This document shows, in pieces, positions 10,377-53,423 of a stretch of DNA of 64,000 nt (position 1 is its first letter; each line of letters starts with the position of its first letter). A model generated the notes under the pieces. It ran no database searches and was not told the origin of the DNA. It saw only the letters and a list, made by a program, of their open reading frames with translations. The stretch is from an uncultured bacterium (GTDB lineage Bacteria; Actinomycetota; Acidimicrobiia; Acidimicrobiales; VFJN01), in NCBI GenBank assembly GCA_963756425.1, contig CAVWNW010000003.1, positions 117,642-181,641 of the forward strand, in the 5' to 3' direction. The position numbers and the translations under genes are program-made.

Positions 10377-11159
10377 GTGGCCGAGATGGTGGCCGACATC
10401 CTCCGAGCACGGATCGTCGACGGTGAGCTGGCGGACGGCGACCTGCTTCCCAAGCAGGACGACCTGCTCGACGAGTTCCGTGTGTCCCGGCCGTCGATCC
10501 GAGAGGCGATGCGCATCCTCGAGACCGAGGGCCTGATCAGCGTCCGCAGGGGCAACATCGGTGGCGCCGAGGTCCACGCTCCGAAGGCGAGCAACGCCGC
10601 CTACATGCTGGGCCTGGTGATGCAGTCCCACCACGTCGACCTGGCCGACCTGGCCGAGGCCCTGCGCATCCTCGAACCCGATTGCGCGGCGCTGTGCGCG
10701 GCGCGCGACGACCGCGGCAAGGCCGTGGTGCCCCGGCTGCGTGAGCTGAACGACCAGGCCGAGGCCCACCTCGACGACGGCCCCGAGTTCACGCGGCTCG
10801 CCCGCCAGTTCCACGACGAGATGGTCGAGTCGTGCGGCAACACAACGATGATCCTGCTGGTCGGCACCCTCGAGACCCTGTGGTCATCGCTGGAGTCGCA
10901 ATGGGCCGAGACCATCGCCGCCGAGGGCCACTACCCCGAGGTCAGGTTGCGGAAGCTGGTGCTGAGGGCCCACGCCCGCCTGACCGACGCCATCGACGCC
11001 GGCAATCGCGAGCTGGCCCACCGCACCGCCCGCAAGCACCTCGACGAGTCGCAGCGGTACGTGCTCGCGACCAACGGCGACCACCGGGTGAACATCACCG
11101 GCCTGCGCTCGCACCTGGCGCCGGCGCCGGGCCGCGGCCCCGACGCGTATCTGGGCTAG
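10377..11159 (+). CDS. GntR-family transcriptional regulator, FadR/FCD-type C-terminal domain
   Basis: Winged-HTH LPKQDDLLDEFRVSRPSIREAMRILETEGLISVRRG followed by an all-helical C-domain. Divergent from the ABC operon. Confidence 0.85.
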   Translation: MAEMVADILRARIVDGELADGDLLPKQDDLLDEFRVSRPSIREAMRILETEGLISVRRGNIGGAEVHAPKASNAAYMLGLVMQSHHVDLADLAEALRILEPDCAALCAARDDRGKAVVPRLRELNDQAEAHLDDGPEFTRLARQFHDEMVESCGNTTMILLVGTLETLWSSLESQWAETIAAEGHYPEVRLRKLVLRAHARLTDAIDAGNRELAHRTARKHLDESQRYVLATNGDHRVNITGLRSHLAPAPGRGPDAYLG

Positions 11160-11207
11160 CGCCGGCGCTTCGCCGGCCCTCGTCACGCTGGGCAGGCAGC
11201 GACTCCC

Positions 11208-11301
11208 GAGGCAATAGGTTCCACTGAGACACGGATGAGGCAATAGGTTCCACCGTCGGAACTCATTGCCTCCGGCTTGCCGCGGCGGAACCGATTGCCT
11301 C
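11208..11301. repeat. Nested-palindrome intergenic element, copy 1 (four 15-nt units at offsets 0/29/50/79)
   Basis: GAGGCAATAGGTTCC at 11208 and 11237. The inverted units GGAACTCATTGCCTC and GGAACCGATTGCCTC are at 11258 and 11287. The element lies between convergent gene ends. Confidence 0.85.
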
Positions 11302-11323
11302 GGGTCTCGGCCCTCGTTGGGCG

Positions 11324-12217
11324 CTACGCGAAGTGCTTCGCCAGCAGCGGTAGCTCGCCCATGCTGTCGGGCGGGACCAGGTAGCCGGCCTCGTCGCGGA
11401 TCTCGTAGAGGTGGGCGTCCACGTCCTCGATGGTGAGGTCGGGCTTGAAGTACCCGGGCGTCACCGCAACGAAGACCCGGCCGACACGCCCTCCCCCGAC
11501 CGTGAAGACCTCGCCGGTGACCGAGCAGCGCTCGTGCGCCAACCAGGCGGCGACCGGGGCCACGAGCTCGGGGTCGAGCCAGTCGTGCATGTCGCCCAGC
11601 AGGCCGTCGGTCATCCGGGTCCGGGCCATCGGCGCGATGGCGTTCACCCTGATGCCGTGGGGCCCGCCCTCGATGGCGAGGACCCTGGTCATGCCCACCA
11701 CGCCCATCTTGGCGGCGCCGTAGTTGGCCTGGCCGAAGTTGCCGAGGATGCCGCTGGCCGACGACGTGAACACGACGCGCCCGTAGCCCCGCTCCCGCAT
11801 GACCCGCCAGGCCGGGAGGGTGACGAAGAACGAACCCCGCAGGTGGACGTCGAGCACGGGATCCAGCTCGTCGGGCGTCAGGTTGTGGAATGCCCGGTCC
11901 CGCAGGATGCCGGCGTTGTTGACGACGATGTCGATCCGGCCGAACGCCTCGAGCGCAGCGGCGACCAGCGCGCGGCCCCCCTCGGGCGTCGCGACGGTGT
12001 CGGTGTTCGCCAGTGCGACGCCGCCGCTGTCCTCGATCTCCTGTGCCACGGTGGCGGCCGGGCCGGCCGATGCCCCGGCGCCGTCGACCGAGCCGCCCAG
12101 GTCGTTCACCAACACCTGCGCGCCCCGGGCGGCCAGCAGCAGCGCGTGGGCGCGGCCGAGGCCGTTGCCGGCACCGGTCACGATCGCCACCCGGCCGTCG
12201 AACCCGAGATCCGCCAT
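11324..12217 (-). CDS. SDR, MFE-2-type (3R)-hydroxyacyl-CoA dehydrogenase-like
   Basis: VTGAGNGLGRAHA, NNAGILRD and NYGAAKMG motifs, plus a C-terminal extension typical of the MFE-2/Hsd4A N-domain group. Confidence 0.8.
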   Translation of the reverse strand: MADLGFDGRVAIVTGAGNGLGRAHALLLAARGAQVLVNDLGGSVDGAGASAGPAATVAQEIEDSGGVALANTDTVATPEGGRALVAAALEAFGRIDIVVNNAGILRDRAFHNLTPDELDPVLDVHLRGSFFVTLPAWRVMRERGYGRVVFTSSASGILGNFGQANYGAAKMGVVGMTRVLAIEGGPHGIRVNAIAPMARTRMTDGLLGDMHDWLDPELVAPVAAWLAHERCSVTGEVFTVGGGRVGRVFVAVTPGYFKPDLTIEDVDAHLYEIRDEAGYLVPPDSMGELPLLAKHFA

Positions 12218-21870: not shown

Positions 21871-22329
21871 GTGAACGACGACGAGCGCTGGCTCGAGTTG
21901 GCGCTGGAGCAGGCCCGGCTCGGGCGGACCGAGGGCGGCGTACCCATCGGCGCCGTGCTGGTGGCCGACGGGCGGGTGCTGGGCACCGGGCGCAACCGCC
22001 GGGTCCAGCTGGGCAGCGCCATCCGCCACGGGGAGACCGACGCGATCGAGAACGCCGGCAGGCTGCCGGCCACCACCTACCGGCGGGCCACGATGTACAC
22101 CACGCTTTCGCCGTGCTTCATGTGCGCCGGCACGCTCCTGCACTACGGCGTCGCCCGGGTGGTCATCGGCGAGAACGCCACCTTCCTCGGCGCCGAGGGT
22201 CTGCTGCGCCAGCAGGGCGTGGAGCTCGTCAACCTCGACTCGGCCGAGTGCCGACAGCTCATGCGGGAGTTCATCGCCGCCGAGCCGGCCCTGTGGCACG
22301 AGGACATCGGGGAGGAGGAGCCGGGATAG
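21871..22329 (+). CDS. Cytosine deaminase of the yeast Fcy1 / CMP-dCMP deaminase fold
   Basis: HGE...PCFMC zinc motifs. Collinear resemblance to yeast Fcy1 (GGVPIG.., TLYTTLSPC.MC.G, GENV/ATF, W.EDIGE). Confidence 0.8.
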   Translation: MNDDERWLELALEQARLGRTEGGVPIGAVLVADGRVLGTGRNRRVQLGSAIRHGETDAIENAGRLPATTYRRATMYTTLSPCFMCAGTLLHYGVARVVIGENATFLGAEGLLRQQGVELVNLDSAECRQLMREFIAAEPALWHEDIGEEEPG

Positions 22330-22351
22330 CGGGGCGGGACCCGGCATTCCC

Positions 22352-22445
22352 GAGGCAATGGGTTCCGGATCGGGGAGCTCGAGGTCATGGGTTCCGGCTT
22401 CGGAACCCATGACCTCGGCCTCGCCCTGGCGGAACCTATGACCTC
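22352..22445. repeat. Nested-palindrome intergenic element, copy 2 (same 0/29/50/79 geometry)
   Basis: GAGGCAATGGGTTCC 22352, GAGGTCATGGGTTCC 22381, GGAACCCATGACCTC 22402, GGAACCTATGACCTC 22431. The element starts 23 nt after the deaminase stop. Confidence 0.85.
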
Positions 22446-22722
22446 GGCTCGCTCTCGCCTGCGGTCCTCCAGGCCCGGTCGAGCCGGGCTAGGCGCGAGG
22501 GGCACGACCTCGGTTGTCGATGACATGTGTGATGGACCTCCCGGAGTGGACGAACGCGTTCCTGGTGGGGACACGCTTCGCCCGGGAGGCCCACGCGCAC
22601 GGGCTACGGCGACCGCATGGTGATTGGTCAGGCCGCGTCAACATCGGCGCATGGTGCGGAGCGTAACGCAGCGGCCGTTTCGGATCGCTCGATAACGGAG
22701 GGGCGGTCGATGGTCGACCGGG

Positions 22723-23631
22723 TCAGGGCCGAAGGACGTACCTCCCGCGCACGCCGCCCTTCGCGACCGCGCGGTGGGCGGTGGCCACCTGGTCGAGCGG
22801 GAGCACGGCGTGTACCCGCGCCGGTAGCCGGCCGCTGGCGGTGGCGTCGAGGAGCTCGGCGAGCCGAGCACCGTCGGGCTGCGTCACCACCACCTGGACG
22901 GTGACGCCGCGCTCCTCCGCCGGCGCCGCGCCCGGCTGCACGCCGACGAAGATGCCTCCGTCGCGGACCAGGGCGATGCCCTGCTCCTGGAGCACGGCGC
23001 CATCGGCTACCGCGTCCCAGCCGGGCGCGGCCTCGACGGTGAAGTCGGCACCAAGGCCGCGCACGAACCCCTCATCCTGCGCCCGGGCCAGTCCGGTGAC
23101 CCGCCAGCCGCGGTCCTGGGCGAGCGAGGCGACGTACCCGCCGACCGCGCCCGCGGCCCCGGTCACCAGCAGGCTGCGGCCTCGGCCGTCGCCCAGCAGG
23201 TCGACGATCTGGGCTGCGGCCAGGCCGTTGAGCGGGACCGTGGCTGCAGATGCCAGGTCCAGGCCGTCGGGCACGAGAGCGGTGTCGCGCACCGGAACGA
23301 CCAGTTGCTCGGCGTACGTGCCGAAGTCGCGGTCGAACCCGGTGACGAGCCCGGCGACCGGACTGCCGACCGGGAGGTCGACATCCGGACCGACCGCCGT
23401 GACGGTGCCGGCGAAGTCCCAGCCCAGGCCGGTGTGGTCGGGCTGGTCGATCAGCCCGCGCTCGTGGAACACCCCGGCGGCGAGCGCCAGGTCGACGGGA
23501 TTGACCGTGGCCCCGGCGATCTCGACCCGGACCTGGCCCGGCCCGGGCTCGACGACGGGCACGTCGATGATCTCGATGGAGTCGGGACCACCCGGGGTGC
23601 GGACGACCGCGGTGCGGAAGGTGGTGGACAT
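22723..23631 (-). CDS. MDR-family NADPH:quinone oxidoreductase / zinc-type alcohol dehydrogenase-like
   Basis: GVNPVDL-type N-domain and LVTGAAGAVGGY Rossmann motif. AGGAGG RBS lies before ATG 23631. Confidence 0.8.
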   Translation of the reverse strand: MSTTFRTAVVRTPGGPDSIEIIDVPVVEPGPGQVRVEIAGATVNPVDLALAAGVFHERGLIDQPDHTGLGWDFAGTVTAVGPDVDLPVGSPVAGLVTGFDRDFGTYAEQLVVPVRDTALVPDGLDLASAATVPLNGLAAAQIVDLLGDGRGRSLLVTGAAGAVGGYVASLAQDRGWRVTGLARAQDEGFVRGLGADFTVEAAPGWDAVADGAVLQEQGIALVRDGGIFVGVQPGAAPAEERGVTVQVVVTQPDGARLAELLDATASGRLPARVHAVLPLDQVATAHRAVAKGGVRGRYVLRP

Positions 23632-23697
23632 GTTCGCCTCCTGGGGTCGCATGAGCGGTGTTCCACCACCACGATCCACGAGTTACTCTCTATTGGG

Positions 23698-52278: not shown

Positions 52279-52394
52279 CGGGCCACCTCCGTTCGTCGCG
52301 GTCGTTCGTCGCCGTCGTTCCTGGCGCAATTCTGGTTGCTCAACAACCACTTTGGCGCCAGGAACCTCAGAGCGCCTCCCTAGGCTCGTCGCCC

Positions 52395-53423
52395 ATGGAG
52401 CACATCCCCTCGGCCGACCGCTACCAGACCATGCCCTATCGCCGCTGCGGGCGCAGCGGGCTGATGCTGCCCCCGATCTCGCTCGGCTTGTGGCACAACT
52501 TCGGGCACGACCGCCCGTTCGAGCCCCAGCTGGAGATTTGCCGCCGGGCCTTCGACCTGGGCGTCACCCACTTCGACCTGGCCAACAACTACGGGCCGCC
52601 GTACGGCTCGGCGGAGGAGAACTTCGGCCGGATCCTGGCCACCGACTTCGCCGGCCACCGCGACGAGCTCGTGATCTCCACCAAGGCGGGCTACGACATG
52701 TGGCCGGGGCCGTACGGCGAGGGCGGCTCCCGCAAGTACCTGCTGGCGTCGCTCGACCAGTCTCTCGGGCGGATGGGCCTCGACTACGTCGACATCTTCT
52801 ACTCCCACCGCTTCGATCCCGACACGCCGCTGGAGGAGACGATGTCGGCGCTGGCGACGGCGATCACCCAGGGCAAGGCGCTGTACGCCGGCATCTCGTC
52901 GTACTCCTCGGCGCGCACGGTCGAGGCTGCACAGCTGCTGGCCGACCACGGCGTGCCGCTGCTGATCCACCAGCCGTCGTACTCGATGTTCAACCGCTGG
53001 ATCGAGGACGACGGCCTGCTGGACACGCTCGAGGCCGTGGGCGCCGGATGCATCGCATTCTCGCCGCTCGCCCAGGGCCTGCTCACGGATCGCTACCTGA
53101 ACGGCATCCCTGCCGACTCCCGGGTCGCGACCGGTGGCGCGATGAGCCGCGACATGCTCACCGAGGACAACCTCGCCCACGTGCGGGCGCTGGCCGAGCT
53201 GGCCGGGGAGCGCGGACAGAGCCTCGCCCAGACGGCGCTGGCCTGGGCGCTGCGTGACCCGCGGATGACGTCGCTGGTCATCGGCGCGAGCAGCGTCGCC
53301 CAGCTGGAGGCCGATCTGGCGGCGCTGGACAACCTCGCCTTCACCGATGCGGAGCTCGACGCCATCGACAAGTACGCCACCGACGCCGACATCAACCTCT
53401 GGGAGGCGTCCAGCCGGGAGTGA
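52395..53423 (+). CDS. Aldo/keto reductase, YghZ/Kv-beta-like
   Basis: GLWHNFG, FDLANNYGPPYGSAEE, STKAGYDMWPGPYG and YSHRFDP motifs. Confidence 0.85.
   Translation: MEHIPSADRYQTMPYRRCGRSGLMLPPISLGLWHNFGHDRPFEPQLEICRRAFDLGVTHFDLANNYGPPYGSAEENFGRILATDFAGHRDELVISTKAGYDMWPGPYGEGGSRKYLLASLDQSLGRMGLDYVDIFYSHRFDPDTPLEETMSALATAITQGKALYAGISSYSSARTVEAAQLLADHGVPLLIHQPSYSMFNRWIEDDGLLDTLEAVGAGCIAFSPLAQGLLTDRYLNGIPADSRVATGGAMSRDMLTEDNLAHVRALAELAGERGQSLAQTALAWALRDPRMTSLVIGASSVAQLEADLAALDNLAFTDAELDAIDKYATDADINLWEASSRE

Follow-up and report, generated by a model that had tools for sequence, protein, structure and literature searches.

What holds four short words at fixed distances from one another, twice within a single 64-kb stretch of DNA (64,000 nucleotides; hereafter the window) and both times between converging genes? 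The initial annotation of this window, whose proteins are most closely related to those of Acidimicrobiales MAGs, described a 94-bp nested palindrome of two direct and two inverted 15-nt units at offsets 0, 29, 50 and 79, and offered a bidirectional terminator or mRNA stabiliser, a protein-binding array and a miniature mobile element as possible functions.

Searching the window for the unit with at most three mismatches returns eight matches against 0.49 expected (100 dinucleotide shuffles, maximum 2), at exactly the annotated positions in both copies. A relaxed pattern adds two matches, both weak and isolated, indicating that the window holds exactly two elements, copies A and B (Table 1). 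The annotated 94 bp is correct as the span of the units, but the conserved block is wider, about 100 bp, with C/G-rich triplets flanking the outer units. The inverted units of copy A lie where they had been placed, although the inner one departs from the consensus; in copy B the outer unit pair carries a mismatch at a CA/TC dinucleotide. Both copies fold into the proposed nested hairpin, with predicted energies of -67.6 kcal/mol for copy A (z = -6.3) and -77.3 kcal/mol for copy B (z = -6.5) relative to shuffled controls. The ORF calls agree with the convergent placement of both copies, and the GntR/FCD and SDR assignments at copy A are borne out by the Pfam domains of orthologues. Three of the four gaps between block and gene end measure 19-45 nt; in the fourth, about 270 bp of apparently non-coding DNA (22449-22722) separates copy B from the quinone-reductase-like ORF. 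Elsewhere in the window, a palindrome with 22-nt arms (GTTCCTGGCGCAATTCTGGTTG / CAACCACTTTGGCGCCAGGAAC; 52317-52365) lies in the intergenic region of two divergent ORFs, one ending at about 52350 on the minus strand and the other starting at 52395 on the plus strand; it resembles an operator and does not belong to the four-unit family.

Table 1. Four-unit elements of the window, their units and the genes that face them.
Feature	Position	Strand	Basis
Element copy A, ~100-bp dyad-symmetric four-unit block, family 1 (GGTTCC type)	11205..11304		boundaries from conservation profile of 72 elements
Copy A unit 1, GAGGCAATAGGTTCC	11208..11222	+	unit search
Copy A unit 2, GAGGCAATAGGTTCC, 29 nt from unit 1	11237..11251	+	unit search
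Copy A unit 3, inverted, GAGGCAATGAGTTCC, single deviation from consensus (GGAACT)	11258..11272	-	unit search
Copy A unit 4, inverted, GAGGCAATCGGTTCC	11287..11301	-	unit search
Element copy B, ~100-bp four-unit block, family 1	22349..22448		boundaries from conservation profile
Copy B unit 1, GAGGCAATGGGTTCC	22352..22366	+	unit search
Copy B unit 2, GAGGTCATGGGTTCC	22381..22395	+	unit search
Copy B unit 3, inverted, GAGGTCATGGGTTCC	22402..22416	-	unit search
Copy B unit 4, inverted, GAGGTCATAGGTTCC	22431..22445	-	unit search
GntR/FCD regulator gene; stop codon 45 nt ahead of copy A	10377..11159	+	ORF; Pfam domains of orthologue
SDR gene converging on copy A; stop codon 19 nt past block	11324..12217	-	ORF; Pfam domains of orthologue
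Deaminase-like ORF; stop codon 19 nt ahead of copy B	21871..22329	+	putative, from translation
Quinone-oxidoreductase-like ORF converging on copy B, 274 nt off	22723..23679	-	putative, from translation

The dispersed, structured extragenic element that the initial annotation deduced from two copies proved to be widespread, with at least 193 elements of the same geometry in other genomes and metagenomes. A pattern search of one genome per GTDB species, for two units 4-34 nt apart, returned at least 106 stretches, nearly all of them in MAGs of Acidimicrobiales, Acidimicrobiia or Actinomycetota, and at least 18 species-level genomes are represented among the 80 matches listed. Almost all listed matches are 44 nt long, which corresponds to the 29-nt period, and the 0+/29+/50-/79- arrangement is the commonest architecture, with 43 clean cases among the matches listed and most of the others differing by one degenerate unit. 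Aligning 72 unique full elements yields a block of about 100 bp, cCCGAGGymATgGGTTCCg-N8-gaGccc-GAGGymATgGGTTCCG-gatc-(mirror image), whose edges are sharp at -2 and +97; immediately beyond them the information content is at background level, the flanks showing no conservation. A 93-nt subfamily of at least 41 copies (L001, L006, L013, L045 and others), mostly from MFD long-read MAGs, has a third unit of 14 nt that is one base short and without the AT core (GGAACnnnnGCCTC, usually with ATCCTC after it), and this shortening renders the element asymmetric.

No named family accounts for these repeats, in agreement with the initial annotation. Rfam release 15 gives zero matches over the whole window at gathering thresholds, and an E-value scan of the element returns generic miRNA-precursor hairpins alone, at 16-19 bits compared with gathering thresholds of 53-100 bits. 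Our literature search found no paper that describes these repeats, links Acidimicrobiia to REP elements or links DUF559 to repeats. The family thus appears to be a large and undescribed one of ~100-bp palindromic intergenic repeats of Acidimicrobiia. A scan of 2.9 million viral contigs gave a single match, off-geometry (spacing 57 nt) and in a giant-virus MAG (L250:5314-5370), indicating that the family is not phage-borne. Two matches outside Acidimicrobiia, in Actinoplanes subtropicus (L039:1883-1924) and Limnoraphis (L009:4767-4889), have spacings of 42 and 51 nt and were set aside as unrelated; like the viral one, they are probably chance matches or unrelated repeats.

The pattern of conservation within the element distinguishes between a word and a stem as the object of selection. 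Of the 15 unit positions, twelve (1-4, 7-8 and 10-15) hold the same base in 94-100% of copies, while the other three (5, 6 and 9) are free to vary, as are the 14-nt spacers, whose length but not sequence is fixed; the two spacers of an element are not complementary to each other. The unit itself, GAGGymATnGGTTCC, contains neither an internal dyad nor a GTAG head, dyad symmetry being a property of the whole array. Under the nested-hairpin model, 85.0% of cells are paired, compared with 83.9% when partners are shuffled, and the variable positions are mismatched in 24-40% of cases (up to 40% at 6 and 9). Because these variable stem positions show no covariation with their hairpin partners, the hairpin is largely a by-product of one conserved word repeated four times in dyad symmetry, and selection on RNA structure is rejected as the main constraint. 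Selection on the word and its spacing is a sign of sequence-specific recognition and not of a stem kept for itself.

Comparison of relatives at the site of copy A suggests that the word can change while the geometry stays. In relatives with SDR proteins 99% and 94% identical (L107-L110), the same element is present in the SDR/GntR spacer. At the same site in a 91% relative (L111, L112), the four units read GAGGCAATGACGAAC, with offsets of 0/29/51/80; L111:3915-4009 and window positions 11205-11304 have in common the left flank and, within the first spacer, 6 nt. All four units therefore appear, from this alignment, to have been changed in place. A metagenome scan for the CGAAC unit returned at least 120 stretches in which 0/29/51/80 dominates, and the same linker motifs recur across at least 60 unique copies, identifying the CGAAC type as a sister family (family 2, the GGTTCC type being family 1). 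Two more unit types, GGTCCC and GAGT..GTCCG, have the same geometry. Families 1 and 2, the two tested, occur one per stretch: family-1 loci contain 452 family-1 and 26 family-2 units, and family-2 loci 3 and 401, respectively, the minority counts being about the level of single chance matches. Such fixed geometry combined with concerted, genome-specific change of the units is as expected for a trans-acting reader that co-evolves with its sites.

By gene contexts that rest on a crude GC3-based ORF caller, family 1 elements fall into 25 convergent, 21 tandem and 3 divergent regions (baseline intergenic regions of the same loci: 95, 284 and 78), and family 2 elements into 18, 24 and 2 (baseline: 85, 181 and 52), showing enrichment in convergent and depletion in divergent regions (5 of the 93 classified copies). 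The median distance past the facing stop codon is 48 nt for family 1 and 14 nt for family 2. These positions near stop codons are what would be expected if the element acted primarily at the RNA level, as a bidirectional hairpin terminator or 3'-end stabiliser whose stem is read by an RNA-binding factor or RNase. The hairpins of both window copies are strong, the palindromic consensus yields the same hairpin from either strand, and an actinobacterium supplies a precedent in TRIT, a sequence-conserved palindromic terminator motif of 147 copies (PMC3152330). Neither arm, however, is followed by a U-tract on either strand in either window copy, so that the element, though it forms a hairpin, is not a canonical intrinsic terminator. 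A selected stem would also have to accommodate the lack of covariation noted above and a 14 x 14-nt internal loop of fixed length and random sequence, and an RNA-level role leaves unexplained both the joint change of four units between genomes and the nuclease gene that the arrays bracket (see below). We regard such a primary role as rather unlikely; as a secondary function it is compatible with a binding array, and a contribution to termination or to the 3' end may be of this secondary kind, made plausible by the location and the strong palindrome.

The bracketed gene emerged from pairs of elements lying 0.5-3 kb apart. Seven such pairs are present in the fetched loci, six of them spaced ~1.0-1.08 kb, and five of these six enclose an ORF of about 315 aa with AbiEi_4 and DUF559 domains (Pfam). 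An AbiEi_4 + DUF559 gene stands between two arrays ~1.0-1.1 kb apart in 11 lineages (L006, L098, L022, L126, L136, L138, L234, L235, L236-238, L239 and L240), and in all the fetched contexts of homologues a four-unit element of the local type stands on either side of it: GGTCCC in L235 and L236-238, CGAAC in L239, a GAGT/GGTTCC variant in L234 and GAGT..GTCCG in L240. In L022, L126 and L236 the two flanking elements are direct repeats with 89-96% identity. Other widely spaced unit pairs were considered as the ends of an autonomous element and rejected, as those in L059 and L062 enclose ordinary genes and that in L074 encloses XdhC.

In nine of the 11 lineages the gene occupies one orthologous locus, in which two acyl-CoA dehydrogenase genes converge on the element-gene-element unit and a thiamine pyrophosphokinase (TPK) gene follows. 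It follows that the AbiEi-DUF559 gene is old and vertically inherited, like RAYT genes, and also that the bracketed cases are not independent. This concern about shared ancestry is offset by L235 and L236, in which the upstream array still adjoins the gene despite the insertion of other genes, and by L239, in which gene and arrays are found together in a different context. Counting against a gene-specific link, arrays persist and switch type at the ordinary SDR/GntR locus as well, and the 64-kb window encodes no AbiEi-DUF559 homologue. Copies A and B, with no such gene nearby, are therefore dispersed members of the family instead of operators for a neighbouring gene.

Three further observations concern this locus. 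A conserved motif, TGTCACACC(C), lies 27-53 nt before the AbiEi-DUF559 start codon at eight of ten loci (L022:3735-3767; L126, L136, L234, L235, L236, L239), with a one-base variant, TGTCATACC, in L138; situated between the upstream array and the gene and nearer the start codon, it may be a promoter or the true operator. A 74-aa C-terminal AbiEi-DUF559 remnant sits beside two tandem elements at L106:2161-2382, where the usual acyl-CoA dehydrogenase and TPK neighbours are absent, and may be a decayed second copy. Many homologues (P0121-P0240; L242-L249) come from contigs of 1.1-1.5 kb (for P0137, 14 of 16 contigs are shorter than 2 kb), which would fit short-read assemblies that break close to the repeats on either side of the gene.

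The AlphaFold model of the protein (pLDDT 89.9) comprises two modules. The N-terminal ~200 aa resemble the AbiEi antitoxin 6Y8Q by fold, and PADLOC matches the protein to AbiEi at 1e-25. The last ~100 aa are structurally similar to the catalytic domain of I-Bth0305I, a homing endonuclease (3R3P, TM 0.70-0.77), and match the DUF559 protein NGO0050 (3HRL) by both sequence and fold; the putative catalytic residues, acidic and His, do not vary among 60 homologues. In the winged-helix motif, the proteins of family 2 read GATDPxIxRR and the others GF(P/G)xxTIxRR. AbiEi-family proteins bind sets of two or four 23-bp repeats that occupy ~120 bp immediately before the genes encoding these proteins (Beck et al. 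2020, PMC7319586), a direct precedent that makes the four-site array a plausible target of the AbiEi module.

The same precedent would suit another arrangement, in which the arrays are non-mobile, vertically inherited operators of a global regulator, or sites of a nucleoid or roadblock protein, AbiEi-like or other. Invariant recognition positions with free spacers, and retention of the array at the SDR/GntR site among relatives with 94-99% protein identity, are both consistent with fixed sites. Copies have nevertheless been duplicated to unrelated sites. The elements L022_3631 and L022_4774 share 96-97% identity over the entire block, including the spacers, and have unrelated flanks, and L033/L051 and L096/L106 are pairs that each have spacers in common and unrelated flanks. 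Tandem arrays of two or three elements 42-123 bp apart occur as well (L013:2293-2692, L045:7194-7709, L067:1503-1732 and L106:2442-2693); in L045 the flanks are also duplicated, pointing to tandem duplication. Fixed operators, moreover, would be expected at promoters, whereas the copies lie at gene 3' ends and rarely in divergent regions, and the partner protein has conserved nuclease residues. We consider fixed operators improbable.

Duplicated copies, sharp boundaries, and two direct plus two inverted sites are all features that a MITE could have, that is, a deletion derivative of a DDE transposon with two transposase-binding sites per end, mobilised in trans. Transposon ends with multiple binding sites are known from Tn7, Mu, IS21 and Tn402. 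The 72 elements, however, show no target-site duplication of 2-9 bp at any of eleven boundary offsets. Among 150 neighbouring genes, which are housekeeping or metabolic, the 25 Pfam families hit most often include no transposase, and the ~1.4 Mb of fetched loci contain no longer, same-ended element enclosing a transposase, the sole recurrent enclosed gene being AbiEi-DUF559. The termini are not TG...CA. Lacking both target-site duplications and a parental element, the repeat is not a MITE in our assessment, and we consider this origin very unlikely. A genuine REP/REPIN mobilised by a RAYT (Y1 HUH transposase) is the least probable explanation, because, for all the resemblance of extragenic, palindromic, multi-copy repeats that lack target-site duplications, have genome-specific sequence types and bracket a single-copy gene, the units are non-palindromic and without a GTAG-like head, the bracketed gene encodes AbiEi + DUF559 instead of Y1_Tnp, and no Y1 family is found among those same 25 Pfam families.

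Of the functions proposed in the initial annotation, the protein-binding array is thus favoured by the conservation pattern, and copying to new sites holds, whereas the target-site duplications and parental transposase element expected of a miniature transposon were not found. In the reading that we prefer, which rests on genomic association and has in our estimate an even chance of being correct, the element would be a REPIN/BIME-like array of four protein-binding sites, cognate to the AbiEi-DUF559 endonuclease and spread to gene 3' ends. The array would consist of four ~15-19-bp recognition units, two direct at a distance of 29 nt and two mirror images, and is best read as a binding platform for a sequence-specific protein since the units, and not the hairpin, are conserved. 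The most likely partner would be the ~315-aa protein with an AbiEi-type winged helix and a DUF559 domain (Vsr / EDxHD homing-endonuclease-like), which, by analogy with REPIN-RAYT, may bind the arrays and possibly nick them. Binding or nicking would then drive or maintain duplication of the array into gene-poor 3' intergenic sites, and might also homogenise its type. Once settled, the GC-rich palindrome may act in addition as a bidirectional hairpin at converging gene ends. A more specific version, which we put forward tentatively and regard as doubtful, is a REPIN-like intragenomic replicator with a vertically inherited, non-HUH AbiEi-wHTH/DUF559 enzyme, in which nicking would lead both to duplication free of target-site duplications and to the switching of unit type in place across the genome, for instance from GGTTCC to CGAAC, that orthologous sites also show. 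We know of no PD-(D/E)XK or Vsr-like nuclease that mobilises short repeats.

This proposed binding array shares features with several known systems and is identical to none. Like REPIN-RAYT systems and the BIMEs of E. coli, the family consists of short, GC-rich, extragenic palindromic repeats that lie in multiple copies after genes without target-site duplications; its genome-specific type and its bracketed single-copy, vertically inherited nuclease/transposase gene recall REPIN-RAYT, and its fixed internal geometry recalls BIMEs. By contrast with REPIN-RAYT, which is described mainly from Proteobacteria, it is found in Acidimicrobiia, is organised as a four-site array of two direct and two inverted non-palindromic units with 14-nt spacers of random sequence, and is associated with an AbiEi wHTH + DUF559 PD-(D/E)XK nuclease instead of a Y1 HUH transposase.

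The nearest actinobacterial analogue in location and idea is TRIT (Tuberculosis Rho-independent terminator), reported in the RNIE paper as Mycobacterium-restricted (Gardner et al. 2011, PMC3152330); Arnvig 2011 contains no description of it. Both are sequence-conserved actinobacterial palindromes at gene termini, mostly bidirectional and without a canonical U-tract, TRIT numbering ~150 copies, and the authors of TRIT proposed a factor that reads the conserved stem (PMC3152330). TRIT, however, is a single hairpin located around -8 from the stop codon, compared with medians of +48 and +14 nt here, and was described without a four-unit 29-nt geometry or an associated gene.

With the operators of AbiEi and Rv2827c (type IV TA antitoxins), the family has in common the DNA-binding protein family and the presence of two or four ~20-bp repeats upstream of the gene; repeats lie just upstream of an AbiEi-family gene in L006, L022, L098, L126, L136 and L234-L240. 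AbiEi operators, however, are single-copy promoter elements of a TA operon with a DUF1814 toxin, whereas here the protein is a nuclease fusion, no AbiEii gene is adjacent and the array is dispersed. The C-terminal domain has the catalytic fold of I-Bth0305I and other EDxHD homing endonucleases and of Vsr-like DUF559 nucleases, yet, unlike homing endonuclease genes, this gene is not intron- or intein-borne and occupies a conserved locus between two full repeats, not the inside of a split site.

The partnership between repeats and enzyme in REPIN-RAYT has so far involved one enzyme class, mostly in Proteobacteria. The family described here, from an under-studied and mostly uncultured actinobacterial class, would show that such an arrangement arose more than once, a view based on the strict four-site geometry, the genome-specific unit types and the bracketed AbiEi-DUF559 gene; the non-HUH replicator, if true, would be a second, independent origin of the partnership between a repeat and a domesticated nuclease. 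DUF559/AbiEi-fusion proteins are very common and uncharacterised in Actinobacteria, and the array would give them a testable DNA target. It would also mark gene ends in Acidimicrobiia MAGs and would explain sites at which assemblies break. Finally, the apparent switching of all four units in place among close relatives raises the question of how a repeat population and its reader may co-evolve.
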